A DNA stretch of 64,000 nt from the IMG/VR virus record IMGVR_UViG_3300024272_002379, one strand, 5' to 3'. Below, piece after piece: positions 11,859 through 52,622 of the stretch (positions within the stretch are counted from its first letter, which is position 1; each line of letters opens with the position of its first letter). Made by a program: the position numbers and the translations under genes. The stretch is from a virus (lineage: Duplodnaviria > Caudoviricetes). The notes under the pieces were generated by a model. It did not search any database, had not been told where the DNA came from, and was given only the letters and a program-made list of their open reading frames with translations.

Positions 11859-14800
11859 TTAAGTTTCCTTAATTGTTAATCGTTTACCTTTTGTTTTATT
11901 TTGATGGTGTAGTTCCCAATATTCTGCTAATTTCTTGTAAGTTTCGCTAACACCTAAGTTACCTTTTTTAATGATATCGTATACTTCTTGCCTATTGTCG
12001 TGCAAGTTGGCAAACGCTATCATTTTTTTAGCCACTTCATCCAAAGGCTTGTTTCCAGCTTTTAACGTTGGGTCAAATTCTATAGATAGATTTTTAAAAG
12101 TACCATTTGGAACTTTAATATTACCGATATAAAATGTTCCGTTTAGATTATGAGATGCAGTTTTTTCTATTTTAACTATATTAACGTCTCCTGTATACGG
12201 TAGTGGGTAAGTTAAATTTAATGCTGACCTTGAAACTGTATCTACCAGAACATTGTTTATATATATATTAACCGAACCAATGGTATTTGACAATGAAAAT
12301 GTAAATGTAGTGTTCTTTCTGTTGTCGATTTCAAATGTTACATAGGCATCTTGTGTTCCTATGTACGCTGGATTGTTTCGAATAACACCTAACGAGGCAT
12401 CGACATACATACTGTGATTGGTTAACAAGTCATTTGGAATCAGACAAGTACCTGTCGTAAGCTTTGATTCTAAAGTTCCATATTCATAAGATACTATGTA
12501 TTGAGAATTTCTAATGATACTTGTTTCACTGTACCATCTTATCTGTCTAAATACTCTCAATGCCTGCTCTAATTGGTCAACTGGGAAATACTCCATAATC
12601 CATACATATATATAATCCAGCATTTGCTTAACAGATTGAACCATCGTCATTGTTCCGAATTCAAATATTTTGCTTTGCCATATCCTGTAATACTTTAAGA
12701 ATATCGTATGCATAATACTTGTTTCAACGTCTATATATTCAATACCTATTTTGTCATAGTCTGGAGTTGGATGTTTAATTGGGTATTTGGCTATAAACGT
12801 TGTTTCGTCTATTTTTTTAACAGGGTTTTTTGGTCTCATCTGCTCCTTATCAAATATGATATTTTCAAAATCCTCATATCTTGTATCGTTCTCTGGTAAC
12901 AATAATTCATCAATACCATACCTTACGCCATCAAATGGGTCTGGGTCTTCGTACACCCATACCCAATTACCAAAATCATTTGGTAGGATATTTAATTCCT
13001 TAGATATTTGATGAGCTCCTGCTATTTGTTTAAATAACTCAGATTCTGAAATAAACTTATTTCCAAATATTTCATGGTCATAAAAACCTTTTAATTCTTT
13101 TTTTGCTGTTGCTCCAATACAATCCAGCATATGGATATTTCGTTTATCTCTGTAACCTTGAAGCTGTGTTTGAATTTGCATGTCTATTTCTTTACCGTCG
13201 CCCCAAGTAAATCCATAATCATAGTAACACATTTGACTTAATTTATCTACAAATAATGAATCTTGTGTATTTATTTTATAGCTTACTTTCGATGCTCCCA
13301 AAAATTCTTTTGTAAAGGTATCTTTAGCTTTTTTAAATACATTTGAACCTTCGTCTATAAAGACGTTATTTGCCTTTCTGAAGGCTTTTATTCCTTGGGT
13401 AAGCCACATACCATCTATTGTTCTATCTGCCCAAATTACAGCCTTTAAATCGCTCAGGTGACGTGCTTTTACTTGAGCCATTATGTCTTTACTAATTATA
13501 AGGTATAATTTTGTTCTTGTTATCTGTAAATTCTTATACTCAAGGTAAAGATTGTGCTCTTTTCTGTCACACATTAAACCTAACTCTAACTGCATTTTTC
13601 CAGACAGTACAGAAGCAAATATAGATTCAGATAAAAATCCTTTACCAATTGTTTTCTGGACCATAACATTGATGTTGTCTATATAGGCTTGGTTTTTTAC
13701 TTTAGACACTGGTATCATTAATCCACCAAAACCATGATGAAGTGCATTTACGTAATTAGCAGGAATATCATTTCTAATAACAGAATCAAAGTCAATATAG
13801 TCCATACTTACAATCTTTTTAATTAAGCTTTGACCATTTTCAAAGATTCCTGCAAAATAGTTTTCCTTGCTTGCCAATATATCTTTTATAAAGTGATTAA
13901 TGTTATGAATACCTTTTTCTAGCCATGGTGTTCCAAAAAAATACCATTCCATTCCTGTGTATGGAAGTCTATATGCAAAATCCTGATTATAATTAATCGA
14001 AGAGCCTTTTTTTATCTTCCACACAAAATCAGGTTTTTGAATGATACTAAATCGACTTGAATCTTTTAAGTATCCAGGCAGATGACTTTCCAATACAAAA
14101 GAACTAGATTCTTTTTTATAGCCAGGTAAATGGCTTTCTAACTCAAAAGAGATTCTGTCTTTTCTGTATCCTGTGGCATCATCTTTGATTTCAAAATCTA
14201 CACCATCTTTATACATAAAAACATGTTCGCCATATCTATCCTGAAGTCGTACAGGATATGACTCTCTTTCGATAAAGTATGTGGTATATAGAATTTTAAA
14301 CCATTTTCTACATTTATCTAGTCGTTCGTATTTATTATTGATAGATGTTTGTTTTTGCCCCTTATCTAATGTCTCGTGTACATTATCAATAAAAGCTGAT
14401 TTATGATTTTTCTGCAAAAAAGTTCCAGACTGAGTTACTGTATCTATTGCATCTAAATCTAATGTAACGCCAGTACTTTGATAACAAGATTTAATATTTT
14501 TATCTGTCCAGAAATATTCCCACTCTGTATCTCCGATTGTTTCCATGTCCAAGAATATAGAAATGCCATCAATGGCAAGCGTTTGCTTTGTATCTTTTTC
14601 TACAAATATATCAAATATTTCAAGGTCAAGTCCGCATAATAACCCGTGTTTACGCTGAAGAAAATACTGTTTTTCAAAGAATGTTCTTTTTGGCAACAAA
14701 TCCATTGTAATATGATTATTAAATCTGCTTGTTTCCTTACCATACTTATGACCAAACATGTGACTACTTACACAACAAGCTTGTTGATAAAGACGTTTTA

Positions 14801-38748: not shown

Positions 38749-39822
38749 ATGAAGATTCAGTTTGGCAGAGGATTAAGAACAGTAAATGAAAAGGATTTAT
38801 TCGCTATTGATGTAATACCCACATGGGTAGATATTCCTTACGACATCGTTAAGAAATATGAGGATTTTATCACAGAACTTTGTGAACAAAGTGGGACTAT
38901 AGGCAGATTCAATGAAGCTGTTTATAAAGATATAGTGGCATATGCTACAGAACTTATTAACCCAGTAAAAGAAGAAATGGAGGACACAGATATGGGTACA
39001 ACAACAATTAATGAAACAACTAACAACACAAATGAAATGGAGGAAACAACAATGACAGGAACAGTAAAAGGAAACGTAGAATTAGCAGTGGAAGAAATGA
39101 TGAGTAAGTTTGTAGAAGCTAAAGAAAACATTAAGGTTAATGTTGGTGAAACAGCAGAGGAATACATTGAAAGAGTAGATGACTCAGTTGATGTAATGAA
39201 AGGTGCTCTTGGTAATGTACTTGATGTTCTTGACAAAACATTAGGCTATACAATCTTAAAAGACAGTATCCTTGAAATTATGGAAGCTGGCACTACAGGT
39301 AAATCTTCTAAGAAAGACTTATTTAAAATGGCTAAGAGATGTCGTGAGTTATTAGAAGAAGAAATTGATAACCTTGAATTCTGGGGAGACCAGGAATCAT
39401 TAGCAAAGGCTGTTCAATTAAAAGCTCTTACTGAAGCTGACAGAGATAAATCTGTATTTGAAGCATTCGTATCAGGATGTATTCATATTGCAAAGAGAGT
39501 AGCACGTAAGTTACGTAAATGGTTCCAGGTAGATAACGAGAAATCTGTTGTTGGTGCTATTTGCAGAAGTATTTCTGGATTTACAAAAGCCATTCGTGCT
39601 GGTGTTAAAATCGTATGGAATACAGCTAAGTTTGCAGTATCATTCATCATTGCTGGTGCTGTAAAGGTTGGTGACTTTATCGTAAGAACATTTAAATCTT
39701 TATTCATTAAGATGAAAGAATGGGCTACTGTTCAGTATCAGAAACTTTCTAAAGAAGATGCTGAAGATGATTTTGCAGAAGAAGACTTCATTATTGATGA
39801 AGAAGTTGTCATTGCAGATTAA
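38749..39822 (+). CDS. hypothetical helical protein with two internal in-frame SD-ATG starts
   Basis: 357 aa; amphipathic C-terminal helices, acidic tail. Confidence 0.7.
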   Translation: MKIQFGRGLRTVNEKDLFAIDVIPTWVDIPYDIVKKYEDFITELCEQSGTIGRFNEAVYKDIVAYATELINPVKEEMEDTDMGTTTINETTNNTNEMEETTMTGTVKGNVELAVEEMMSKFVEAKENIKVNVGETAEEYIERVDDSVDVMKGALGNVLDVLDKTLGYTILKDSILEIMEAGTTGKSSKKDLFKMAKRCRELLEEEIDNLEFWGDQESLAKAVQLKALTEADRDKSVFEAFVSGCIHIAKRVARKLRKWFQVDNEKSVVGAICRSISGFTKAIRAGVKIVWNTAKFAVSFIIAGAVKVGDFIVRTFKSLFIKMKEWATVQYQKLSKEDAEDDFAEEDFIIDEEVVIAD

Positions 39823-40024
39823 TCATTAATATTACTGGTCCAATGAGTATATATGACCTTAAACTATTTTACTCACTGACATACATATACTAAAAATTAC
39901 CCCTAGTTGAACTTGAAATTACTCGCTGTGTATTTCTTGAAGAGCTAGGGGTAAGTATTTTACCCTTAACTACAATGAGAACTCAGTTTTACGTGCATGA
40001 TGAGCACAGAAAGGATGGTCTATT

Positions 40025-41257
40025 ATGACAACAAATGAAAGAATTCAGGAACTTATCAACTTAGTAAATCGTTATGACTGCTACATTGAGTATATTGATG
40101 ATTATCGTCAATACAAACAGGCAGAACGTGCTAATGGAAATATTGAGGCACGTTTTATCGAAGTATGTTCAGAACTTGGCATGGAAGTAACTTCATCTGA
40201 TTTTCACAATGTTTTATGGAAATCACGCTATGACACCATAGAAGAGGCTGTTAATAAACTTTTACAAGACAAAGGCTTTAATAAGGAGGAAACCAATATG
40301 ACAACAAACACAACACCAGCAAACAACACAAATAAGGAGGAAACAAAGATGATTACTAATACTGCAAGCAAGGCATTGGATATGGTTGAGCACATGAAGA
40401 AAGGTGAAACTACTTACAAGAAATCAAACTTAGCATTAGTGTTACTCAATATCAATACTGTTACAGAAAGATTAATGTATGTATGGGATAATGTCCAGCA
40501 CGTAACTCGCACATCAGATGAACTTTATATTAGCAAGGAGGACTTAGCTCAGTTCTTATTTGATGCAGACATTATTCAGCGTCACTTATCCAAAACAGAA
40601 CTCAAGAAGATTAAAAGACAGAAATTAGTAGATACTCTGTCTACTGCTGTTAATAATCTTATCAAGGCTGGTGTTATTACCCCTATGAAAACTGTAACCT
40701 TTGAAGAAGCTGAAAAGATAGTAGCCGCAATGCCTCCTGTAAAAGAACACACCCATGTTGCATACGGAAAGACTACTTCTATGGATATACTCGAACAGGT
40801 TATTCGCAATGCTAATAAGAACAATGACCGCAACTTCATTAGTGATTGGATGCTCACAAGTATTATCTCTAAGATAGTTACTGGTAACCCATTAAAAGGA
40901 TATGAGGATGGTGAACTTGTAGAATACTACAAAGCATTTACCGAAGCTCAGAAAGATAACATCAATGAGATAAAAGCAGAGTTCTTAAGAAAGAGTAATT
41001 TTATTCCTGTTAAAGATAAACATGATGAGAATAAAAACTCAGGATATATTATTCCAGCAGCATCATTAGTATATGGTAGACATATTTGGTTGGGATATGC
41101 ATGTGTATATCGCTTGAAAAAGGATATGAATGCTAGATACGAAGTATCCCTTAACGGCATCAAGAATACACAGACTGGTGAAACAACATTATTTACACTT
41201 GAAAACAAAGCAACATTATTCGCTAAATTAGACAGCGAGTATGTATTTATTGGGTAA
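40025..41257 (+). CDS. hypothetical protein with two internal in-frame SD-ATG starts
   Basis: 410 aa; leader has TGATGAG hairpin and AAAGGATGGT SD. Confidence 0.7.
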   Translation: MTTNERIQELINLVNRYDCYIEYIDDYRQYKQAERANGNIEARFIEVCSELGMEVTSSDFHNVLWKSRYDTIEEAVNKLLQDKGFNKEETNMTTNTTPANNTNKEETKMITNTASKALDMVEHMKKGETTYKKSNLALVLLNINTVTERLMYVWDNVQHVTRTSDELYISKEDLAQFLFDADIIQRHLSKTELKKIKRQKLVDTLSTAVNNLIKAGVITPMKTVTFEEAEKIVAAMPPVKEHTHVAYGKTTSMDILEQVIRNANKNNDRNFISDWMLTSIISKIVTGNPLKGYEDGELVEYYKAFTEAQKDNINEIKAEFLRKSNFIPVKDKHDENKNSGYIIPAASLVYGRHIWLGYACVYRLKKDMNARYEVSLNGIKNTQTGETTLFTLENKATLFAKLDSEYVFIG

Positions 41258-41311
41258 TAACTAAAAGCGGCCCGTTAGGGCCGCAACTCTACAAGAAAGG
41301 ATGGTACTATT

Positions 41312-41740
41312 ATGAATACAATATTTGACAAGTTTCTTACAATCCAGCACTGTGATTACTATGCTAATCAGGTAGCTAAAAAGCTTAATCTAAAGACTTA
41401 CTCATATTACTGGGATAATTCTTCTCAAATGCAGTTTCCTGGTAATTCTAATATCTTAAACTGGGGTGTTCTTAAATCATATGAGCCGTGGCGTATTAAG
41501 TTTAACTTAACTAAACCAGCTACTATTATGAAGATGGGATTAGAAGAATATGTATCTAAGAACCATGAGTTAAGATTTAATTTAACTATAAAGGGACTAA
41601 GTATTATCTATGTTATACAGTTTTATAATCCTAGTGATGATGGTTCTATGAATGCTGTAATAGATGAGAATACTAAATGTCTCTATGTAGAAGATAAGAC
41701 CACAGGGCAGTATTCTTTTGCCTTCGGCCCTGAGGTATAG
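41312..41740 (+). CDS. hypothetical protein
   Basis: 142 aa; AAAGGATGGT SD. Confidence 0.65.
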   Translation: MNTIFDKFLTIQHCDYYANQVAKKLNLKTYSYYWDNSSQMQFPGNSNILNWGVLKSYEPWRIKFNLTKPATIMKMGLEEYVSKNHELRFNLTIKGLSIIYVIQFYNPSDDGSMNAVIDENTKCLYVEDKTTGQYSFAFGPEV

Positions 41741-42534
41741 AGGTGTGCTTGTAACCTTGATAGGTACTAAACTGAACTACGTTCAGTTTAGCAGATATTT
41801 TCTTAAAAGTCAAGAGGTAACTCAAATAAAATCAGAGCGTTATCTGCTGTGTAAAGATAGCGGTTTAACGGAGCCACAAGACTATATTCCGTGGCACACG
41901 GACATTTATACGGGGATTTTGATATATCAACCCCTAATTTGTCTGTCCGTGGCGAACAATCTTAGGATTAGTAGCCCTCACAATGGAGCAAATTCTTGCG
42001 TAATAAGGCCCTTCGGGATTGAGTTGGCGTTACAAAGTCCGTAGAGATGAGATGATAATAGAATATTATACAGTCTCTCGACGAGGGTAGCTGGTCATCT
42101 TATTCTATTTTTGAGTATTTTATAACAAAATGTAACATAGTACTACTCATCGTAGTGTTACATTCTATATGAGGAGATATTCTCTTATATAGGTTATATT
42201 CCCCTCTTGACTCTATATACATGTATCTTATTACCTCTATTATATGGCTATGGTATGCTATGTTATTTATTATATACTATAGCCATTTTATATATTCATT
42301 TATCTAAGGTTTTCTTATATTCATATCTTATCTTTATGCCATATATTCTTTTATGGTTCTTAGAGATTTTATTCTATATTATTTAGGTTTTTAAGTTAAA
42401 TTATCTCTCCCTTCGGACTTAAATAATATACATGGTTTATTTCAAATATGTCGGAGGGTTTGAGGAATTTCTTTTAATTAGTATGGATTATCACCATATC
42501 TAACAGGCTATCGCCTGGTTTAAAGATTGGAGGA

Positions 42535-42873
42535 ATGTATATTATGGATGAAAGATTTGTTGCTATTATTGTATCTGCTATTATCGCTATTATATTTGCT
42601 TTAATATATCAGAGTATTGAAGATGCTTTCTTTACTGTGAAATATGATGAAGAAAATGATGAGGATGATACAGTAGAATACGAATTCATTGATGAAGACC
42701 TTTATCCTGGTTGTTTTGTTTATGACACTATTACAGGAGAAATCGTACAATACACTGGTGTTCATCTGGGTGAAGACAATAATAATTACGCTACCTGTGT
42801 ATCTATGAAAGATAATACAGTTCGCTATTATTATTGTTTATTTGAAACTATATTACATGTAAGACAGAAGTGA
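42535..42873 (+). CDS. small protein with N-terminal TM helix
   Basis: FVAIIVSAIIAIIFALIY; GGAGG SD. Confidence 0.6.
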   Translation: MYIMDERFVAIIVSAIIAIIFALIYQSIEDAFFTVKYDEENDEDDTVEYEFIDEDLYPGCFVYDTITGEIVQYTGVHLGEDNNNYATCVSMKDNTVRYYYCLFETILHVRQK

Positions 42874-42915
42874 TGAGCTGTCTTTAAAGAAAAAACGAAA
42901 GGTTGGTATACTATT

Positions 42916-45900
42916 ATGACAAACATTAATTTTGAAGATTTAAAGGTAACTGAATTGAAAGAGCTTTGCAGAAAGGCTAACATTAAAGGCTATTCTCGTA
43001 TGAAGAAAGCTGAACTCGTTGATGCTCTCAATAATAATAAAGAGGCTAAGAAAGTTATTCTTAATGAGGCTAAGACATTTGCTAAAAATGAATTAGGACG
43101 TGACTTTGGTAAAGCTGTATCTTTCTGGAAACAGTTACGTAGCATTAAATTCATGACTGCTAACGACTATACTGAAATGGTTGATAACTGGAAAATCCTT
43201 ATCAGTTTATTCCATATCGCTGAAGTTGACGGTACTCAGAATCGTGCTTTAACCGACTCTCTTATGGGTACTGCTGAATCTCTTCGTGATATCTTCTGTC
43301 CTGGAACTGATATCAGTGGTTATTCTGATGACGAACTTAAAGAGTTTATCGAATCATCAATCGAAGAGTTTTCATTATCTGTATTCTCTAAACGCTTAAA
43401 GAAAGAGAATACTGAAATCATTAAAATGAGCATGGACCATATTTCATTTAATGACCAGGGATTGGCATACTTTGACTCTACTAAAGCATCTAAATTCACT
43501 GGCAAAGAGGTTAGAGCTCATAAAACTGATATGCGTATCGTGGAATCATCTGAAGACGGTATCTCTCGTATGCTTATGAGCAGAGGATTATCATCTATCA
43601 CTGTATTTATGGGTAAAACTGCTCAGAAAGAAGAAGAGATGAAACTCATTAATGACTGTAAGAGAAACATCTTCAAAAATGGTTTTGTTGACATCTCTAC
43701 TGGCAAGCATTATATGTTCGCATTCCAGAATCCATCATCATGTCGTAAATCTAACTTCATGTTTGTTGAGGCAAACGACTGGAATGAAGTAGTTTCATTA
43801 TGGCTTGAGATTACTGGTCTTAAGACATGGGAAGAATTCCAGCGTGCATTCTTTGATGATGAGGGTAAAGTAGTTATGGCTAAGTTATTGGCTAGAATTT
43901 CTACTAGAGGTTCTAACTCATTTAACTTATCAAAGATTAGTCCTGTGTGGGCTGATAAGATTGCGAAATCTAATATCAGATATTGTAAAGACCCATCATG
44001 GACAATTAAGAGACCTTTCAAAACAATGAAAGGACCTGGTTGTATGGAAATGCAGGAAGACGTTGAACGTACAGTTACTCCTGGTGACGGTCAGATGATT
44101 GGCTCATTTGAATTCCATGCTCTTATGGCAGTTGCTTTAAGAGTTATCTCAGAGAATGAATACAATGAGTTCTCTATGTTATGGGAGAAAGCCAATAAGG
44201 ACGTTAAGAATGTAAAAGAGGGTTCTCGTCTTTACAAACTTATTAAGAAAATCCCAGGTGTATTCCAGCTTCGTCATGGTGAAAAGAAAGGTATCTGTGT
44301 AAGATACAATATTGAGGCTATTGATGAACTTAAGGATGTAAATGCTATCGTACCAGACAGTGTTCGTAAGTTCGTAGCTGGTGAATGGGATGAGTTCCCA
44401 TTGGAAATTTGTAATTATATCAAGAAGAAAGACCAGTGGGTAGCTTTAAATCCACAGTTCATTCAGGCTCTTGAATATGAAAATCCAAATGCTTTATTAC
44501 CTATTGTTAAGTTCTGGTTTGATTACATGAAAGACTCTCTCAGCGATATTGCTAAAGCTCAGCAGTTCCATGGTATTATTAAGAACTCTGATGATGAGGA
44601 GAATAAAACAATTGCTGGTAATCTTGTTACAGCTATGCGTACTTCATCTGATTTAATTGATGATGCACAGATTTGTAACTGGAGAAAAGACCAGTATCGT
44701 AAATTCATTTCTGATATGAAAATCGGTAGAATATTAGTTCCTGGTCAGTATACTTATATGGTATGTGACCCAGCATTCATTATCAATCAGGTATTTGGTC
44801 TCGATTTACCTCATCTTGCAGAGGGTGAATATTACCACAATGGTAAAGAATGTGAATGTGGATTATTCAGAAGTCCATTAATTCATCCAAGTGAGGCTCA
44901 GAGAGTTAAGTTATCTAACAATGAGGCTTATTGGTACATGCAGGATGTAATCGTCTTTAATGGTAAAGACGGTGCATGGGATAGAATGTCTGGGGCAGAT
45001 TTTGATGGAGATACCTGTGCTGTTATCACAAACGACACTGATTTTGGTAAGATTGTTGTTGACGGTATCAGACAATTATCATTTGATATCTGGGAAGAGG
45101 CACAGAAAGCTGTAAAGAAACCATTTAATATGGATAACTTTATTGAACATCTTGTAACTTCTGCTAAAGTTGATAGAACTGGTGTTATTACCAATTATGC
45201 TTCTAAAGCATTGGATATTAGTAATCATTTAAAGAGTGCTGTATACTTTGCTAAGTTATTAGGCTGTGAGAATATCACATTAATTCACCCACAGGCATTT
45301 GGTGAAAAGCTCGGTAGTGATTTCCAGCCTAAGACTGGTATTATTGATGGTGTGAAGACATTCATGCTCAAAGGATTTGTTGAGGCTAAATATAATTCAC
45401 AGACAAGACGTGTTGAATTTGCAGACACTGGTTTTGTTGGTACATTTGATTTCGATAAAATCCTTGAAATTGCAGATAATTATCTTAACCTTGTAGAGAT
45501 TTTAAGAATCTTACAGGGTAGAGAGATTGATGGTGCTAAGACTGGTGTATATGCAGAGGGTGTATCTGGTAATGACTTCATTGATGCTGTTAAGATTAAA
45601 TTCACTCCTCATGAAATGATTGTACGTCAGGAAACATTGGATAGAGAAGTTGCTTTATCTTCTAAATGTAATGAGTATTGGTCATTATCTCCTCTTGCAC
45701 GTATTCATGATTATGTAGTAATGCATGAAAATGAGATTATGGACTATTTAACAAATGGTTCTAATAAAATCTTCTTACTTCAGTCATTACTTACAGATGA
45801 GGAAGCTAATGCAATGAATACACCATATTTAATGCAGGATGGTAGTTATAAAACTCTTATTGACATTATGGCTATTCGTAAGAAAGCATATAACTCTAAG

Positions 45901-46650
45901 ATTTATGACACTATGAAGAATCTTACAGGTGATGATGCTTCTAATACTTTGAAAGAAATCAAAGATGTTGAGGTTGATGACTTGAATGAATTAGCTACAG
46001 CATTAAATATCAGCACCGAAATCGTAGCTGTTGCAGGCTATATTGCAACATACACTAAAGACAGTAAGCAGGGCGAGGGCTTGACATATGCATGGTTATT
46101 ATTCGATGAATTATTATCAGTATTTAGCCGTGGCAACAAGAAATTTGAGCTTTTCAGATTACCTTCTTCTGTTGAGAATGCTTATATTGAAAATAAGGTT
46201 CTCTATGTCAATGGGAACAAATACATCAACATTAATGCAAATGATTGCAATAACGTTGTAATTCAGGTAATTAATGGTAGACCTTACGGTTTAATCCACA
46301 AGCTTGTGGATAAAGTAGCATCTCCTAGAAAGAGCAACGTTACTTATGGTAGTGCAGTATATACTATTGGTACTTTAGGATTTAAATATCACATTGTAAG
46401 TGAGAATCCTAAAGATGAGTGGAAGAAACTTGTCAAAGAAAATGGTTATGTATTCGACATTACTATGGATGCTACAAATCGTGCAGTTATCAGCATTAAT
46501 GGCAAATCTATTTCTGCTCTTATGAGTGTTGGTGCAAGCTTTGACTTAATGAATAAGAAAGTTAAACTTGTAAATGATATGCAGAATCCTATTAAGGAAA
46601 CAAATGCATCTATTACAAATCTTGCTGTTATTATCATTGGCGAGGCTTAA
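42916..46650 (+). CDS. single-subunit two-barrel RNA polymerase (cellular RdRP / SPbeta YonO family) with N-terminal Rho_N-like domain
   Basis: catalytic MSGADFDGD (44986-45012); RdRP-family motifs TPGDGQMIGS, PGVFQLRHGEKKG, LNPQFIQALE, FRSPLIHPSE; N-terminal LKVTELKELCRKANIKGYSRMKKAELVDAL. Confidence 0.88.
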   Translation: MTNINFEDLKVTELKELCRKANIKGYSRMKKAELVDALNNNKEAKKVILNEAKTFAKNELGRDFGKAVSFWKQLRSIKFMTANDYTEMVDNWKILISLFHIAEVDGTQNRALTDSLMGTAESLRDIFCPGTDISGYSDDELKEFIESSIEEFSLSVFSKRLKKENTEIIKMSMDHISFNDQGLAYFDSTKASKFTGKEVRAHKTDMRIVESSEDGISRMLMSRGLSSITVFMGKTAQKEEEMKLINDCKRNIFKNGFVDISTGKHYMFAFQNPSSCRKSNFMFVEANDWNEVVSLWLEITGLKTWEEFQRAFFDDEGKVVMAKLLARISTRGSNSFNLSKISPVWADKIAKSNIRYCKDPSWTIKRPFKTMKGPGCMEMQEDVERTVTPGDGQMIGSFEFHALMAVALRVISENEYNEFSMLWEKANKDVKNVKEGSRLYKLIKKIPGVFQLRHGEKKGICVRYNIEAIDELKDVNAIVPDSVRKFVAGEWDEFPLEICNYIKKKDQWVALNPQFIQALEYENPNALLPIVKFWFDYMKDSLSDIAKAQQFHGIIKNSDDEENKTIAGNLVTAMRTSSDLIDDAQICNWRKDQYRKFISDMKIGRILVPGQYTYMVCDPAFIINQVFGLDLPHLAEGEYYHNGKECECGLFRSPLIHPSEAQRVKLSNNEAYWYMQDVIVFNGKDGAWDRMSGADFDGDTCAVITNDTDFGKIVVDGIRQLSFDIWEEAQKAVKKPFNMDNFIEHLVTSAKVDRTGVITNYASKALDISNHLKSAVYFAKLLGCENITLIHPQAFGEKLGSDFQPKTGIIDGVKTFMLKGFVEAKYNSQTRRVEFADTGFVGTFDFDKILEIADNYLNLVEILRILQGREIDGAKTGVYAEGVSGNDFIDAVKIKFTPHEMIVRQETLDREVALSSKCNEYWSLSPLARIHDYVVMHENEIMDYLTNGSNKIFLLQSLLTDEEANAMNTPYLMQDGSYKTLIDIMAIRKKAYNSKIYDTMKNLTGDDASNTLKEIKDVEVDDLNELATALNISTEIVAVAGYIATYTKDSKQGEGLTYAWLLFDELLSVFSRGNKKFELFRLPSSVENAYIENKVLYVNGNKYININANDCNNVVIQVINGRPYGLIHKLVDKVASPRKSNVTYGSAVYTIGTLGFKYHIVSENPKDEWKKLVKENGYVFDITMDATNRAVISINGKSISALMSVGASFDLMNKKVKLVNDMQNPIKETNASITNLAVIIIGEA

Positions 46651-46724
46651 TAATAATTATACTCCCTGTACTGCTAACGCAGTATGGGGAGTATTTGATT
46701 TTATGAAAGGAATGGTAAATAATT

Positions 46725-46988
46725 ATGAGAAGAAGAGTTGAAAATGACAAAATGGCATGTGGAAGAATGAAAGAAGATTACTTTAAGAGTTGCAGAAATC
46801 CAGATTACACATGGAAAAGTAATCGTCTTGTATTTACTGGAATTAAGTTTTTCTGGCACAGAAACAAACCAGTAATACACATTCATTATGAAATTGTATG
46901 TAGAAAATGTGGTCACACAAGACAGTCAGGTAATTGCTTTGGATTGCCAGTCATTAAAGAATTAATCACAGGTAAAATATGTTTTTAA
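46725..46988 (+). CDS. small Cys/His protein
   Basis: 87 aa, CRKCGH motif. Confidence 0.55.
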   Translation: MRRRVENDKMACGRMKEDYFKSCRNPDYTWKSNRLVFTGIKFFWHRNKPVIHIHYEIVCRKCGHTRQSGNCFGLPVIKELITGKICF

Positions 46989-47000
46989 GGAGATGATTAT

Positions 47001-47813
47001 ATGATTACATTAGGCTCTTTTAAAGATATTTCAGATGAATATGATGAGGTATGGCTTATTGTACGTTCATTACAAAATACTCCATATGTTCCAAATACAA
47101 GTGTTTATCACGTTCCAGCATTAAGTCCATCGCCAGAATTGTTTCAAGATTATCTGGCATGGAGAGATGCTGGTATGTGGAATAAAGATATGTTTGAGAA
47201 ACGATATAAGCCACGTTTCTTAGAAGAAATGAAAAATATGATAGCTAAATGTGCATTAAACACACTGAAAAAACGCAGTAAGGATAAGCATATTCTACTT
47301 GCTTGTTATTGTAGAGATGAGGAAATGTGTCATAGAAGTCTTGTTTACCAATTGGTACAAGAAATGCAAGAAACATTTTATTTATTAATAGCAGGTTCTC
47401 GTGAATATGTTAATTATAATGAAATGTGTAAGGTTACTGATTTCTTGCTAAAGAATCAGGTTGCACAGAACAAACGCATTGTGATTGTATCTGGAGGTGC
47501 AAGAGGTGCTGATGCAATGGCAGAAAGATATGCAAAAGAAAGAGGATACCATTGTGAAGTATTTCCTGCTAAATGGTATAAAGATGACGGTAGCTATGAT
47601 AAAAGTGCTGGCTATCGCCGTAATGAAGATATGCATTTATTCTTAGCTGGCCCTTCGGACAAGGAAAGAGGTTGTGTCTGTTTCTGGGATATGACTTCAA
47701 AAGGAACTAAACATAATTTTAGTCTTTCTGTTAAATACGGTAATCCATTAAGAGTTTACGACGTTATTAATCACAGGTTCTTGTCAGAGGAAGAGGTAAA
47801 GCAGTACTCCTAG
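47001..47813 (+). CDS. DUF488 domain fused to YspA/SLOG-family domain
   Basis: N-terminal LSPSPELF...LLACYCRDEEMCHRSLV; C-terminal IAGSR, IVSGGARGADAMAERYA, FPAKW, AGYRRNEDM, FWDMTSKGT. Confidence 0.8.
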   Translation: MITLGSFKDISDEYDEVWLIVRSLQNTPYVPNTSVYHVPALSPSPELFQDYLAWRDAGMWNKDMFEKRYKPRFLEEMKNMIAKCALNTLKKRSKDKHILLACYCRDEEMCHRSLVYQLVQEMQETFYLLIAGSREYVNYNEMCKVTDFLLKNQVAQNKRIVIVSGGARGADAMAERYAKERGYHCEVFPAKWYKDDGSYDKSAGYRRNEDMHLFLAGPSDKERGCVCFWDMTSKGTKHNFSLSVKYGNPLRVYDVINHRFLSEEEVKQYS

Positions 47814-47877
47814 CGGAGTACAATTGGAATAAAAACCACCATCCTTTCTTTTACTACAGGGACTCATCATCCCTTAC

Positions 47878-47910
47878 GGGCTGAGCTAATGCTCAGCCCT
47901 CTATTTTTTT
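47878..47910 (+). terminator. intrinsic terminator
   Basis: GGGCTGAGC-TAAT-GCTCAGCCC then TCTATTTTTT. Confidence 0.55.
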
Positions 47911-47956
47911 AATCAGATTTAATTCGACGTGGCTTTTATACCAGATTGGAGGTTTT

Positions 47957-48223
47957 ATGGAGTACAATAACAGAACTCAATATTATAAAGGAGTTCCTAT
48001 TAAATTAATTATATATACTGAAAAGCATTTTGCACGTTTAAAAGCTAAACGCTTTATATTAGGAGACCCAAAAGCTCATCAAAATATTTGGATACCTAAT
48101 CAATACTTAGAACCTAATGGTTCATTAAAACCTGGTGTCGATATAGATTTCATTTTTAAAAAAGCATATCAGCAAAAGAAATTCTATTACGCACGTATCA
48201 ATATTAATCCAATGTTATGGTAG
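47957..48223 (+). CDS. hypothetical protein
   Basis: 88 aa, GGAGG SD. Confidence 0.65.
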   Translation: MEYNNRTQYYKGVPIKLIIYTEKHFARLKAKRFILGDPKAHQNIWIPNQYLEPNGSLKPGVDIDFIFKKAYQQKKFYYARININPMLW

Positions 48224-48231
48224 GAGGAATC

Positions 48232-48384
48232 ATGAAAAAGTATAGAATAAAATACAAAGAATACATATCAAAAGAAATTCACTATGCAGAAATTATTGCA
48301 GAATGTAGTCAAGATGCAGTTGATATTTTCTTTGATAATTATAGTGGAATGTTTTTAGACATAGAATTTGTAGACTACGTATAG
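48232..48384 (+). CDS. small protein, 50 aa (not in ORF track)
   Basis: AGGAGG SD; MKKYRIKYKEY... Confidence 0.6.
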   Translation: MKKYRIKYKEYISKEIHYAEIIAECSQDAVDIFFDNYSGMFLDIEFVDYV

Positions 48385-48396
48385 GAGGTATATATA

Positions 48397-48561
48397 ATGA
48401 GTCCAAAAGTAAGAATTAGACCATTTGCAAATATAAATTTATGTAGCAAATGCGGTTGTCCAGTACCACGATTAGGCGTATCTTTACGTACAGATTTTGG
48501 TAGTGTTGCTACTAAGACACCATTTATTTGTCCTAAATGCAAAAAGAAAAAGAAGAGGTGA
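48397..48561 (+). CDS. small zinc-ribbon protein, 54 aa (not in ORF track)
   Basis: AGGAGGT SD; CSKC...CPKC and poly-Lys tail. Confidence 0.65.
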   Translation: MSPKVRIRPFANINLCSKCGCPVPRLGVSLRTDFGSVATKTPFICPKCKKKKKR

Positions 48562-48565
48562 TATT

Positions 48566-48907
48566 ATGTTAGATAAAGACAAAGTTATAGAAAAAATGTC
48601 AGAATGTGATTTCACAGTTGCATCTTATAGCATGGGACCTAACGATACCATTAAAGCAATTCATTTTCAATCAGAACCATTTATCAGAAGAGGAAAGGTT
48701 CTTATTCCTTCTTTTGGTTGCAATATCTATCTTGAAGAAGATGAATTTGAATTTAAATATATTGTACCTGGTTCCATAAACATATTATGTACTCCTAAAT
48801 GTAGTTCATTCGAAAGTATGAATGGAGACCATTTTAAAAGAATATACGTAAAGTTTGAAGACCAAGTACGAATACTTTATAGAGCTTTTGGAGGAGATTA
48901 TGCTTGA
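48566..48907 (+). CDS. hypothetical protein (start revised)
   Basis: GAGGTG SD before ATG 48566. Confidence 0.6.
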   Translation: MLDKDKVIEKMSECDFTVASYSMGPNDTIKAIHFQSEPFIRRGKVLIPSFGCNIYLEEDEFEFKYIVPGSINILCTPKCSSFESMNGDHFKRIYVKFEDQVRILYRAFGGDYA

Positions 48908-49379
48908 ATTAAGAGGTAATTATGACATATTTGATTTGCCACAGAACGGCGAGGCTATGTGTGTTACCACTAATGGCATTGTTAAAGCAGACGGTCATGC
49001 CGTTATGGGTGCAGGAATTGCTAAGCAAGCAAATGAAAAGTTTAACATATCAGCACGATTAGGTCAGTATCTTACACAGTACGGCAATCGTGCTTTTAAT
49101 ATGGGTAAATTTTCAAATGGTTCCAGGTGTTTTACTGTTTTTACATTGCCTACAAAACATGATTGGAAACAAGATAGTGATATTACTCTTATCTGTAAAT
49201 CATGCGAACAACTTGTGGAAATGTGTGATAAGTTTGGCATTACCAAATGTTATCTTACGCCACCAGGTTGTGCAAATGGTCATCTTAATTATGAACGACT
49301 TGTCAAACCATGGATATCCATGATACTTGATGACAGATTTATAGTAGTTGATAATCGCACTAGCTTTAAAATATGTTAG
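48900..49379 (+). CDS. macrodomain (ADP-ribose-binding/hydrolase) protein
   Basis: VTTNG...VMGAGIAKQA, LPTKHDWKQDS, PPGCANGHL macro-domain motifs. Confidence 0.8.
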   Translation: MLELRGNYDIFDLPQNGEAMCVTTNGIVKADGHAVMGAGIAKQANEKFNISARLGQYLTQYGNRAFNMGKFSNGSRCFTVFTLPTKHDWKQDSDITLICKSCEQLVEMCDKFGITKCYLTPPGCANGHLNYERLVKPWISMILDDRFIVVDNRTSFKIC

Positions 49380-49448
49380 CAATGCCCCTATCGGGGCATT
49401 TGCGAAATAAACATAATATTTTACACAAACAATGAGGGAGGTATAATA

Positions 49449-49607
49449 ATGGCTCATCCAAACATCGCTGTTGCCATGGTTGTGGAATACATAGTCACAA
49501 GTGGTTTGTACAGCTTCAAATCATTAGCTGAAGAGACTCAGCAGAAACTTATAGGTGCATATGGAGCAGATTTTGAAAAAGAAGTTAATGCACAATTAGC
49601 ACTGTAA
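49449..49607 (+). CDS. small protein, 52 aa (not in ORF track)
   Basis: GGGAGGT SD; MAHPNIAVAMVV... Confidence 0.6.
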   Translation: MAHPNIAVAMVVEYIVTSGLYSFKSLAEETQQKLIGAYGADFEKEVNAQLAL

Positions 49608-49621
49608 AACCCAGAGGAGGT

Positions 49622-50101
49622 ATGAATATGTCATTTGGTGTTATACCAGAAGTAATTGACTGTCCTCAATGCAGATTTCCAGCTCACAAAGACGATTATC
49701 ATGTCGTTGGTGAAGAAAGAGTAGTCTGTAACTGGTGTGGGTACACCCATACGAAAAGTGCAAGCGGAACAGAATCAAGTAGAGGATATGGAAGTATTCA
49801 TTACACTCCTAAAAACGAATCTACAAATGGTTCCAATCAAACGGAGAATATTGTCCGTCTTAAAAATCCGTTGGACTTAGTAGGTAGACATAAAACCATT
49901 ATGGAAATAGAAAAAGACTTTGATATTAACAATTCTTCATTCTATGTATGGAATGAAGAAACGCAAAGTCTTGAATGTCTAATCGGAAAGTTACCCAGAA
50001 CCATAGACGAGGAATACGAGGAACGCAAGCAAGAAATTCAATATGAAATTGAAATGCGTTACACTCAAGGAATAAACTTATCAGACTGTAAAGATTTTTA
50101 A
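49622..50101 (+). CDS. zinc-ribbon hypothetical protein
   Basis: CPQC...CNWC. Confidence 0.65.
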   Translation: MNMSFGVIPEVIDCPQCRFPAHKDDYHVVGEERVVCNWCGYTHTKSASGTESSRGYGSIHYTPKNESTNGSNQTENIVRLKNPLDLVGRHKTIMEIEKDFDINNSSFYVWNEETQSLECLIGKLPRTIDEEYEERKQEIQYEIEMRYTQGINLSDCKDF

Positions 50102-50170
50102 ATCACTTATCGTGACTATGTAACAGGTCTACCGACCTAATTAAAATTCTTTACTATCAAGGAGGTTAAC

Positions 50171-50623
50171 ATGGAGAATGTAAAAGTATTAAACGTACAG
50201 GTTGAGCCTGCTAACGCAAGTACAGAAGATTTGCGTAAAACAGTTGAGGCTACAGCCCAAGCAGTAAAGGAAAGTCTTGATAGCTTTTCAGATGAAGTTC
50301 CAACAGAATCAGAAGAGACTAAAGCAAGAAATTTCCTAAATATGTTCACTGATTATATCAAAGGAGAATCATTCAAGAAAGATATCAATGATACAGCAAA
50401 GAAATATGGTGTTCCACCTAAAAAGCTTGCTGAAAATTTCTTTGAGAAAGCATTAGGCACAGTTGGTGACGTATTAGGTATCGCAATCGGAACTGTTGGT
50501 AACGCAGGTCATACACTTATTGATATTCTTGCAACCATTGCTCATGGTGCTGTTAATGTAATTATTAGTGTAGCTAACGCATTAGCAAGACTTGTTACTT
50601 TCAACAAAACATGTATTGCTTAA
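50171..50623 (+). CDS. hypothetical protein with amphipathic C-terminal helices
   Basis: 150 aa, AAGGAGGT SD. Confidence 0.65.
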   Translation: MENVKVLNVQVEPANASTEDLRKTVEATAQAVKESLDSFSDEVPTESEETKARNFLNMFTDYIKGESFKKDINDTAKKYGVPPKKLAENFFEKALGTVGDVLGIAIGTVGNAGHTLIDILATIAHGAVNVIISVANALARLVTFNKTCIA

Positions 50624-50770
50624 TAAAGAGGCAAGCCCCTATCGGGGCTTAGATGAATAGCAATATTCAAAACACCGTGCCTATCGGCACGACAATAGAG
50701 TGGTCTAGCCTGTTCCACTTTAATATTACGGGTTTAACTATTAATCGTTTTTCCAAAAGGAGGAAATTTT

Positions 50771-51460
50771 ATGAAGACATCAGTTTTAGACGCAAGAACA
50801 GTAGCTATTGTTAGAGACCTTGAAGTAAAACAGGTACAGGGAGCAAATGGTACATTTGAAAGCAAAAGCATCCTTATGCGTATCGCTGTAGACCGTGACT
50901 ATAAAGTTACACGTACAGAAAACGGTAAAACAATTAGCGAATATCCAACAGATTTCTGGTTAGCAAAAGCTACAGGTAATGTTGCTCAGGCAATTTCTGA
51001 TTATTGCACAGCTAAGAAAGAAGACGGCAAACTTGTTTCTCGTCACTTATTACTTTCTGGTAGCTTTGAAACATATCAGAAGAATCGTAACGTAAAAGAA
51101 ACAGTTCAGGTTAACATCAATGGACAGCTTTACAACATCGCTGTTGATTTACAGGTTCCAGACGTTAATACAATTTTCATGATTGACGAGTTCAAGTTCC
51201 TTGACCGCAATCCAGAAAACGTAGGAACAACAGCAACACCAGTGGCTACAGCTTCTGTTACACCTGTTGCTACCCCAGTAACACCTGTTGCTCAGCCAGC
51301 TATGACAACACCAGTTGCACAGCCAGTAGCAGTAGCACCAGTGGCACAGCCAGTTGCAACAATTCCTGTTGCTCAGCCTGCTGTAGATATGGGAGCAACT
51401 ATGAACCCACCAGTTGTAGATAGTAACTTTACACCTGCTGGACAGACAGCTCCGTTCTAA
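50771..51460 (+). CDS. ssb: single-stranded DNA-binding protein
   Basis: OB-fold motifs RIAVDRDY, TDFWLAKATG..A; long PVAQ/PVAT linker; C-terminal APF. Confidence 0.75.
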   Translation: MKTSVLDARTVAIVRDLEVKQVQGANGTFESKSILMRIAVDRDYKVTRTENGKTISEYPTDFWLAKATGNVAQAISDYCTAKKEDGKLVSRHLLLSGSFETYQKNRNVKETVQVNINGQLYNIAVDLQVPDVNTIFMIDEFKFLDRNPENVGTTATPVATASVTPVATPVTPVAQPAMTTPVAQPVAVAPVAQPVATIPVAQPAVDMGATMNPPVVDSNFTPAGQTAPF

Positions 51461-51473
51461 GATTTAAGTATCA

Positions 51474-51514
51474 CCCCTCTCCTAGTGAATTGCTAGGAGA
51501 GGGATTTACTTTTT
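51474..51514 (+). terminator. intrinsic terminator after ssb
   Basis: CCCTCTCCTAG...CTAGGAGAGGG plus T-rich tail. Confidence 0.65.
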
Positions 51515-51527
51515 ATGTAATATCATG

Positions 51528-51556
51528 TTGCACTTCTTTTTTCCTTAGGATATAAT
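51528..51556 (+). promoter_or_regulatory. SigA-type promoter
   Basis: TTGCAC-17-TATAAT. Confidence 0.7.
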
Positions 51557-51579
51557 AATCACTAGAAAGAGGTGATATT

Positions 51580-52098
51580 ATGAATCCTATTAACATCGAA
51601 GAGGCTCTTGAAAAAGATGAAAACATTCAGGCTGGAATGAACGAGTACAAAGCAATGGAACAAAAAGCAAATAGCGTTGCAGAAGAAATATCTTCTACAC
51701 TAATTGAATCTATTGTTAAAGAAGAGGGAAAATTTAATATCAGTACGGCTATTTTAGCAGTTGCTAAATCCTTATCTCATTTAACTTCTTACATGTATGA
51801 TACTGAAGAAGAATTTTTAATTGACGTTAAGAAAGCAAGAACAGCTACTGTATCTGATATCATACCAGCTTTACTTGACCCACAACCATGTGGAAATTGT
51901 GAAGATTGTAAAAATGGTGACCCATTAGATTGTCAGAATCCAGTTGTTAGAGGTGACTATACAACTAGCAGATTTCTACCAATTCTTTGTAATATGATAA
52001 TTGAGTATGACTTATTCAATAAGATATTACATATGCATACGGTAGGTAAGGAGACAAATCTCGACGAGGCTTCTATAAAAGAAAGTGAGGAAAGCTAA
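51580..52098 (+). CDS. hypothetical protein with Cys cluster
   Basis: CGNCEDC...C. Confidence 0.65.
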   Translation: MNPINIEEALEKDENIQAGMNEYKAMEQKANSVAEEISSTLIESIVKEEGKFNISTAILAVAKSLSHLTSYMYDTEEEFLIDVKKARTATVSDIIPALLDPQPCGNCEDCKNGDPLDCQNPVVRGDYTTSRFLPILCNMIIEYDLFNKILHMHTVGKETNLDEASIKESEES

Positions 52099-52099
52099 A

Positions 52100-52597
52100 A
52101 TGGCAATTTCAGAAACATATTACAGCGAAATGGAAAAACAGCGTAAAGGTTATCTTGATATCAATGCTTACGATTTTTATTTTAATAAGATGCGTCCTTT
52201 CTTAGAGGATATACTTATGAAATGTCGTACAGATGAGGAGCTTACAAGAACAATTTACAAAGTAATGAATGCAAGCGACTCATTCTGTCAGAGAAAGCAA
52301 TATGATTTACTTGCGGAATCATTTGATGTGCTCGAAGTAGCTATTACAGATAAGAATTACTTCAATGGAGTTATGAAAAAAGCTCCAGAATCAGAAAAAG
52401 AAATGGTACGTGAACTTATCGGTAAAATTGCTGATTTACGCATGATTATTAAATGTGAACCAAAGCAGGAACCAGAAGAAAAAGCTACCAAAGACAGAAT
52501 CGGTTATTCCCCTATCGGGGAAAATGAGGATTACTCTCACAGAAACATGGCTACATTAAATGAGCCTACTCCAAAGAGACGAATCCCAAACGTATAA
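52100..52597 (+). CDS. hypothetical protein (start revised)
   Basis: GAGG SD before ATG 52100. Confidence 0.6.
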   Translation: MAISETYYSEMEKQRKGYLDINAYDFYFNKMRPFLEDILMKCRTDEELTRTIYKVMNASDSFCQRKQYDLLAESFDVLEVAITDKNYFNGVMKKAPESEKEMVRELIGKIADLRMIIKCEPKQEPEEKATKDRIGYSPIGENEDYSHRNMATLNEPTPKRRIPNV

Positions 52598-52622
52598 TAA
52601 AAGAATAAGGAGTAAACGAACT

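Follow-up and report, generated by a model that had tools for sequence, protein, structure and literature searches.

The 3′ end of the transcription unit encoding the RNA polymerase of an uncultured phage was found to carry a real and conserved feature, an element at positions 47836-47910 that is outside every curated RNA family. We read this element, with moderate confidence, as an anti-Shine-Dalgarno RNA that is a paralogue of a second copy in a tRNA-Pro leader and that would limit translation of the polymerase gene cluster. The window (the whole stretch of DNA analyzed, 64,000 nucleotides) corresponds to positions 105701-169700, read as the reverse complement, of an IMG/VR phage record of 213,152 bp. 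Its + strand holds all genes from ~37.1 kb to past the window end, and the polymerase transcription unit is composed of the polymerase gene, an 87-aa gene, and a DUF488-SLOG gene (Table 1). The typical ribosome-binding sites of the phage are of the strong Firmicute type (AGGAGG, GGAGGT, or AGGTGA). From 53.6 kb onward a tmRNA gene and ten tRNA genes were identified by ARAGORN; a perfect sigma-70 consensus (TTGACA, 17 nt, TATAAT; 53495-53523) located ~115 nt 5′ of the tmRNA gene suggests that this array is driven by the host polymerase. The relatives compared were loci L001 to L020, obtained by alignment-based scans, and G004; among these, the most informative is L001, a complete phage of 208,433 bp with 54% polymerase identity.

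Table 1. Coordinates of the genes, RNA features, and predicted target sites in the window, with CU-rich tracts from related loci.
Feature	Position	Strand	Detail
Gene 40025	40025-41257	+	410 aa
Gene 41312	41312-41740	+	142 aa, no known family
RNA polymerase gene	42916-46650	+	1244 aa, YonO/RdRP-fold (PF05183), Rho_N-like head
Gene 46725	46725-46988	+	87 aa
DUF488-SLOG fusion gene	47001-47813	+	Stop codon 47811-47813
Predicted target: leader of gene 40025	39993-40019	+	Hairpin GTGC-ATGATGA-GCAC (4 bp), then AGAAAGGATGGT
Predicted best target: ribosome-binding site of gene 41312	41293-41305	+	AAGAAAGGATGGT
Predicted target: polymerase leader	42861-42907	+	Hairpin AAGACAG-AAGTGATGAG-CTGTCTT, then GAAAGGTTGGT at 42897-42907
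Predicted target: ribosome-binding site of gene 46725	46705-46716	+	GAAAGGAATGGT
Stop-side hairpin	47804-47821	+	GTACTCC-TAGC-GGAGTAC; loop contains the DUF488-SLOG stop codon; 5′ boundary of the 3′ UTR module
Anti-Shine-Dalgarno 13-mer	47838-47850	+	ACCATCCTTTCTT
Small hairpin	47858-47874	+	AGGGA-CUCAUCA-UCCCU; 5-bp stem, 7-nt loop; 7-nt spacer after the 13-mer
Intrinsic terminator	47878-47910	+	GGGCTGAGC-TAAT-GCTCAGCCC, then TCTATTTTTTT; ends the polymerase transcription unit
Promoter-like motif	47923-47935	+	TTCGACGTGGCTT; outside the RNA module
Paralogous antisense copy, tRNA-Pro leader	54829-54888	+	GTCATAATTAAGACCATCCTTTT ... ATACGGGT-CTCATCA-ACCCGTAT
CU-rich tract at the element's position			L004: CTCTCTTCTCCTG; L012: CTCTTCTCCCAG; L017: CTTCCTCTCC
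CU-rich tract at the element's position			G004 (polymerase ~25% identical): TTCCTTTCCTTC

A preliminary description of the site had reported a 13-nt complement of 41293-41305 that is also a 12-nt complement of 40008-40019, followed by a fully paired hairpin sharing its loop with the hairpin at 54866-54888, all between the DUF488-SLOG stop hairpin and a terminator; each of these statements was borne out. By direct reading, the 13-mer ACCATCCTTTCTT is the reverse complement of 41293-41305 at 13/13 positions, and nucleotides 1-12 of it match the reverse complement of 40008-40019 at 12/12. The 13-mer resembles the Firmicute-type 16S 3′ tail CACCUCCUUUCU plus one inserted A, and the CUCAUCA loop of the small hairpin is complementary to UGAUGAG in or spanning the loops of leader hairpins. 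Three nucleotides after the small hairpin, the terminator hairpin (47878-47899) has 9 bp, 7 of them G-C, and is followed by TCTATTTTTT, as is characteristic of intrinsic terminators; the T-run is on the + strand only. Folding of 47822-47910 is predicted to leave the 13-mer single-stranded and to form both hairpins, with a z of -5.6 that is dominated by the terminator; taken alone, the small hairpin is unremarkable (-5.3 kcal/mol, z -1.5). An unpaired, conserved seed is thus positioned between a stop codon and its own terminator, as in 3′-UTR-derived small RNAs. Neither a promoter-like site 5′ of the element nor a processing site was found. When 39500-55000 was searched on both strands with Rfam release 15 (E up to 10), no match was detected at 47800-47910; the confident matches were to tmRNA and tRNA only, and the rest were sub-threshold chance matches elsewhere.

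The promoter-like motif that follows the terminator likely marks the start of the next transcription unit. This motif (TCGACGWGGCTT), which is also at 52061-52074 and has 3 matches in the window versus 0.86 expected, immediately follows terminators and precedes ribosome sites by 10-25 nt; we regard it as a candidate promoter for the RdRP-fold polymerase that the phage encodes. Separately, an imperfect inverted repeat (47826-47839/47929-47942) flanks the terminator and overlaps the promoter-like motif, where it could pair only in read-through RNA; a read-through helix of this kind (12/14 nt) was discarded as a candidate feature, since L001 does not conserve it.

Four neighboring genes (40025, 41312, the polymerase gene 42916, and 46725) were found to have GAAAGG-W(1-2)-TGGT-N4-8-ATTATG in common, in which GAAAGG-W-TGGT represents a split Shine-Dalgarno sequence, that is, the full complement of the Firmicute 16S tail AGAAAGGAGGUG interrupted by an inserted base. 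Complementarity of the element to these genes is positioned over the ribosome-binding sites, as for an antisense regulator of initiation, and extends to 13 nt for 41312, 12 nt for 40025, 10/11 for 42916, and 11/12 for 46725 (one-base bulge). In the leaders of 40025 and the polymerase, a hairpin with UGAUGAG in or spanning its loop precedes the site, and the arrangement is collinear with respect to antisense pairing: the target has its hairpin 5′ of the site, and the element has its anti-site 5′ of the hairpin. Loop complementarity spans 6-7 nt, but the 47858-47874 hairpin is weak and the 40025 hairpin is only 4 bp. The sense membership of this family had to be revised, as the preliminary description had recognized two sense copies only and had credited them with the conserved loop: (i) the polymerase leader (42861-42884 plus GAAAGGTTGGT) and the site of 46725 (GAAAGGAATGGT, 46705-46716) are also members; (ii) the copy at 41293 has no TGATGAG hairpin but one with a GTTA loop; and (iii) the hairpin before 40010 is present but has only 4 bp (GTGC/GCAC) and the loop ATGATGA. 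The GTTA hairpin before the 41312 ribosome site (41267-41284; GCGGCCC-GTTA-GGGCCGC) is terminator-like, with a T-run on the - strand only, and its counterpart is kept in L001 (GCGCCCC-GTTA-GGGGCGC). Analysis by Pfam, PHROGs, and the ESM Atlas yielded nothing usable on the function of the target genes, and a RegA-like identity for a target protein was rejected, as the feature match of 0.76 was below chance level and without Pfam support.

Pairing was further compared by cofolding. When the predicted gain was ranked across 237 translation starts, 41312 was found at rank 1 (-20.0 kcal/mol), 46725 at rank 2, the polymerase at rank 3, and 40025 at rank 6. For the tRNA-leader copy, the top four were the four cluster genes, with 40025 at rank 1; the ranking of the 3′ UTR copy is less clean than this, with unrelated purine-rich starts nearly equal. 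Compared with a Firmicute 16S tail that was assumed from a Shine-Dalgarno census rather than taken from a host, the element was predicted to form duplexes that are 2.7-5.4 kcal/mol stronger on the split sites and ~4 kcal/mol weaker on canonical sites.

The paralogous copy in the tRNA-Pro leader is like the 3′ UTR copy in its 10-mer complement, its CUCAUCA loop, its predicted targets, and its retention in L001. It differs in that its complementarity continues through the start codon (GTCAT), its stem is of 8 bp, and its preferred predicted target is 40025 rather than 41312; it would be freed by tRNA 5′ processing, whereas the 3′ UTR copy ends with a terminator. On the transcribed strand, anti-Shine-Dalgarno-like 6-mers are rare in the intergenic DNA of the phage genome and are concentrated at the element and in the tRNA spacers. 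Two more TCCTTT tracts, otherwise rare in intergenic DNA, are on the transcribed strand in tRNA spacers at 55085-55100 and 55135-55150.

Conservation in relatives and rarity in shuffled sequence were the two points on which the preliminary description had staked its proposal. With respect to the first, the syntenic place in L001 has retained the 13-mer, a hairpin containing TCATCA, and the terminator. The core 10-mer AAAGGATGGT has six copies in L001, all within ~17 kb: three at cluster-gene starts including the polymerase, one intragenic, and two in reverse. Both reverse copies are at syntenic spots, one in the tRNA-Pro leader and the other 5′ of the terminator located ahead of the 88-aa (phrog_7070) gene. 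Positions 14636-14648 of L001 are identical to ACCATCCTTTCTT at 13/13 nt and are followed by AGGG-CTTCATCAC-CCCT (14653-14669), by GGGCTGGGC-TTAC-GCCCAGCCC with T7, and then by TTCGACGAGGCTT; the promoter-like motif again follows the terminator (14717-14729). Between the two phages the spacers beside the 13-mer have diverged and the terminator stem changes are compensatory, as are the stem changes in the counterpart of the stop-side hairpin (GCACGCC-TAAC-GGCGTGC), in which the stop codon is 5′ of the hairpin. The gene 5′ of the element in L001 encodes a different SLOG protein (YpsA). The small hairpin of L001 has a 4-bp stem and is missing from the minimum-energy fold. The L001 copy has a 14-nt complement to the start of a 141-aa gene, the orthologue of 41312, and the 13-mer and its target sites are invariant between the two phages. 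One coupled change was detected, with the element loop/polymerase-leader pair being UUCAUCA/UGAUGAA in L001 and CUCAUCA/UGAUGAG in the window; covariation amounts to this single loop change, since only L001 among the relatives keeps the exact element. The polymerase-leader hairpins of the window phage, L001, L009, and L010 have four unrelated stems with UGAUGA in every loop. In addition, the ~800 nt (41741-42534) that separate the 142-aa gene from the polymerase leader have no convincing open frame and no Rfam match, share many identical 13- to 18-nt blocks with L001 8996-9930 and some with L010 8772-9760 (e.g., ATGGTTCTTAGAGA), and may be a large conserved non-coding RNA or leader.

On the second point, the exact AAAGGATGGT is present in 4 copies in the window versus 0.10 expected, a number reached in 0/100 shuffles, and in 5 copies in the 213-kb genome versus 0 for the reversed control pattern. 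Genome-wide, intergenic AAAGG-N1-4-TGGT was confined to five translation starts (four in the polymerase cluster and one outside the window) and the two antisense copies. Intergenic hairpins with G+C-containing stems and TGATGAR/YTCATCA loops number only four in the whole genome: a scan found those at 42861-42884 (+) and, both in the complementary orientation, at 47858-47874 and 54866-54888, and direct reading added the one at 39993-40007 (+). These results uphold the earlier proposal that sense and antisense copies make up a small and non-random family, given the corrected sense membership, with a conserved loop on varying stems across the family; for the element's own hairpin the latter pattern is weak, the L001 stem being of only 4 bp and missing from the minimum-energy fold. 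The rarity does not hold for single matches: 12- to 13-nt complements between some intergenic site and some translation start are not rare genome-wide and have similar counts in control orientations. Complements of translation starts in intergenic RNA are likewise not enriched genome-wide over control orientations, and a general system in which each tRNA spacer or UTR is antisense to some start was rejected on this ground. We therefore base the significance of the element on the repeated family, the paired loops, and the conservation, and not on any single 12- to 13-nt complement.

The covariance approach suggested in the preliminary description was carried out with a model (A4, R1) of the five antisense copies. 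In genome-wide searches of both complete genomes (the window phage and L001), R1 recovered the training copies, that is, the two antisense copies; the next-best matches, on the other strand, were the reverse complements of three target leaders (E 0.04-0.9), and the remaining sub-threshold matches were few and weaker than all leaders except the weakest. Two genomes that are more distant gave no R1 match with E up to 0.9, and in the other loci only the L010 tRNA leader was matched, such that no further family members were recognized by this search. DNA-pattern scans of IMG/VR returned only the L001 contig with a strict pattern and >118 matches, mostly chance, with a loose pattern. Closer relatives exist as proteins (75-82% polymerase identity). 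By megablast and tblastn of cultured phages, only remote polymerase homologues were detected; single-protein IMG/VR scans for close relatives gave no match, and use of the SLOG domain and of the 88-aa protein encoded downstream as IMG/VR queries gained only the distant G004 and unrelated phages.

Among the other relatives, a copy of the element is absent from L010 (60% polymerase identity), and none is on L003/L011 (65%), the contigs of which include a partial SLOG gene and no 3′ UTR. CU-rich tracts are located between the SLOG gene or stop-side hairpin and the terminator plus promoter-like motif in L004, L012, L017, and G004. At the corresponding spot, a motif related to the promoter-like one, AGACATGGCT, is found in L004 (~7325), L012 (~15010), L017 (~14880), and L005, and a weaker version, GGTGTGGCTTTT, in G004. 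Direct reading shows complementarity of the G004 tract to one start at 11/12 positions, and its target ranking is without preference for cluster genes. L004 (10780-10995), L012 (17980-18195), and L017 (18090-18300) also have in common a conserved structured stretch with a tRNA-like T-arm that ends in ACTCCTTCTCCTTTCT directly before a strong terminator and promoter-like motif; this stretch is a candidate small RNA with an anti-Shine-Dalgarno seed. In the group of 49-50% polymerase identity, the tRNA-Pro leader has AGTTGATAGGTGAAA (L012 20455-20584; L017 20604-20733), which is a 12- to 14-nt complement of TTTCACCTATCAA(CT), found 5′ of both polymerase genes after terminator-like hairpins; the TTTCACCTATCAA(CT) sites compared with the leader were L012 9985 and 11252, and L017 11115.

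We propose that the module acts as a 3′-UTR-derived small RNA released by processing or, alternatively, while it still forms the tail of the full-length mRNA. Its 13-mer would pair with the split ribosome-binding sites (GAAAGG-W-UGGU) of 40025, 41312, 42916, and 46725, and a kissing contact between its CUCAUCA loop and the UGAUGAG loops in the leaders of 40025 and the polymerase may come first. Such pairing would block the ribosome site and reduce translation, so that complete transcription of the unit would feed back negatively on the polymerase cluster. With the inserted base, the two sides would form a semi-private pair, in which the split sites are bound more strongly than by a Firmicute-type 16S tail and canonical sites less strongly. 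Observed directly are the sequences with their statistics, the + strand terminator, the synteny, and the conservation; that the module is expressed, processed, and paired in vivo, and that it regulates in the direction and with the sign given here, is inferred. The + strand is taken as the relevant one because of the gene orientation, the one-sided T-run, and the closing U-G pair of the L010 sister hairpin, which exists on the + strand only. A broader and distinctly more tentative idea is that the cluster uses a semi-private translation code: the polymerase-cluster genes would be marked by the split Shine-Dalgarno sequence, and the 3′ UTR module and tRNA-Pro leader would be insertion-bearing look-alikes of the 16S tail that outcompete the ribosome only on these messages.

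Among the alternatives, we consider it unlikely that the element is a 3′-end module with another RNA-level job (exonuclease stability, termination efficiency, a processing signal, or a protein site). Its complementarity would then be incidental, since any CU-rich tract resembles an anti-Shine-Dalgarno sequence, and this agrees with the different CU-rich tracts of the distant relatives, which have no clear specific target, with the weakness of the small hairpin, and with the lack of global enrichment of complements of translation starts. Left unexplained, however, are (i) the match at 13/13 positions, the inserted base among them, to a rare split site; (ii) the tRNA-Pro leader copy that extends through the AUG complement; (iii) the loop complementary to the leader loops; and (iv) the confinement of the 10-mer copies to one region in two genomes.

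It is improbable that the antisense copies lack a function of their own and are inverted DNA relics of a cassette of leader hairpin and ribosome site, left over from recombination or from an ancient inversion. Both copies do read like leaders on the - strand, the tRNA-leader copy as ribosome site, ATG, ACC, and TAA, yet both retain their syntenic positions in a phage with 54% polymerase identity in which the neighboring spacers are no longer alike, and their stems differ while the loops and 13-mer are kept. By direct reading, there is no conserved open frame on the - strand (10 codons in the window and 3 in L001), and in L010 the flanking complement is on the opposite side of the sister hairpin, an order that a simple inversion cannot yield. 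Slimmer still is the chance that the RNA mimics the 16S rRNA 3′ tail as a decoy for a tail-recognizing factor or a general ribosome-site sponge, and not as a cluster-specific regulator. By direct reading, CCACCAUCCUUUCU differs from the Firmicute tail CACCUCCUUUCU solely by one inserted A, and the L010 sister site has ACC-UA-CCUUCU without a matching split site in that locus, both as expected of a mimic; the inserted base, however, costs ~4 kcal/mol of predicted pairing on canonical sites relative to the assumed 16S tail, and the leaders have a matching insertion. Least probable of all is that the functional molecule is a - strand transcript mimicking a leader or ribosome site, or a DNA site bound irrespective of its orientation: the two strands fold with equal stability and the motif is present in both orientations, but there is no - strand gene for tens of kilobases and no convincing - strand promoter, the terminator is on the + strand only, the L010 U-G closing pair fits the + strand only, and a dimeric DNA site is disfavored because the conserved parts are loops and not stem arms.

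Other candidate identities were rejected: (i) a hammerhead ribozyme (UGAUGAG on the - strand), as the preceding base is A and not C, the hairpin loop is closed with no junction, and there is no Rfam match; (ii) a tRNA or anticodon-arm mimic (loop C-U-CAU-C-A), as ARAGORN finds no tRNA, loop position 6 is C, and the other arms are absent; and (iii) a short - strand peptide or upstream open frame at the motif ATG, as frames and lengths are not conserved between the copies or in L001. In unrelated IMG/VR contigs (L088, L121, L057, L092, L098, and L135), a recurring block, CCATCCTTTCTT...TGTCTCATCA...GGTTTCGAC, is antisense to gene starts; viewed by eye as a possible type II hammerhead, it was not called by Rfam at those sites. 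Hammerhead_II matches are elsewhere in L121 and L135, and a ROOL RNA is in L088.

To our knowledge, few regulatory RNAs have been described in lytic or jumbo phages, and we know of none that controls a single-subunit, YonO/RdRP-fold polymerase encoded by a phage. If the anti-Shine-Dalgarno reading is correct, the element would be a compact example of a 3′-UTR-derived antisense RNA that feeds back on its own operon, and of a natural orthogonal Shine-Dalgarno/anti-Shine-Dalgarno pair generated by a single inserted base, which would bear on phage gene timing and synthetic biology. If the semi-private code is also true, synthesis of the RdRP-fold polymerase could be timed or capped independently of other translation. 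Should the reading fail, a conserved 3′ UTR motif remains.

Several known systems share part of this design. The c4 RNA is processed by RNase P. Like the CI RNA of P4, the c4 antisense RNA of P1/P7 is a phage RNA that is transcribed in the same direction as its target and cut from a longer transcript, and in both RNAs short complementary stretches in loops or single strands cover the ribosome-binding site (PMC12197685). The sar RNA of P22 is a phage antisense RNA that masks a ribosome site in a manner like c4 (PMC12197685). The element is proposed to mask ribosome sites as c4 and sar do, and, like c4, it is on the same strand as its targets. While c4 is upstream of its target in the immunity operon and controls an antirepressor, the element is at the 3′ end of a unit with its own terminator and has the polymerase cluster as its predicted targets; the two have no sequence or structure similarity. 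In the ColE1 RNA I/RNA II and R1 CopA/CopT pairs, kissing loops nucleate a longer duplex. The complementary 6- to 7-nt loops of the element and its leaders, on short G+C-rich stems, could likewise nucleate pairing; however, the ColE1 and CopA RNAs are transcribed opposite the target strand and are complementary throughout, whereas here only the loop and 13-mer match, and the loci are on the same strand 1-8 kb apart. Small RNAs derived from 3′ UTRs include CpxQ, SroC, DapZ, and RsaC, and Firmicute small RNAs with CU- or C-rich seeds include RsaE/RoxS. The element is like the former in its unpaired seed between a stop codon and the intrinsic terminator of the mRNA, and like the latter in its pyrimidine-rich seed complementary to Shine-Dalgarno sequences. 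It differs from both groups in that it is phage-encoded, its predicted targets are in its own and the neighboring operon, and the inserted base of its seed matches a private split site.
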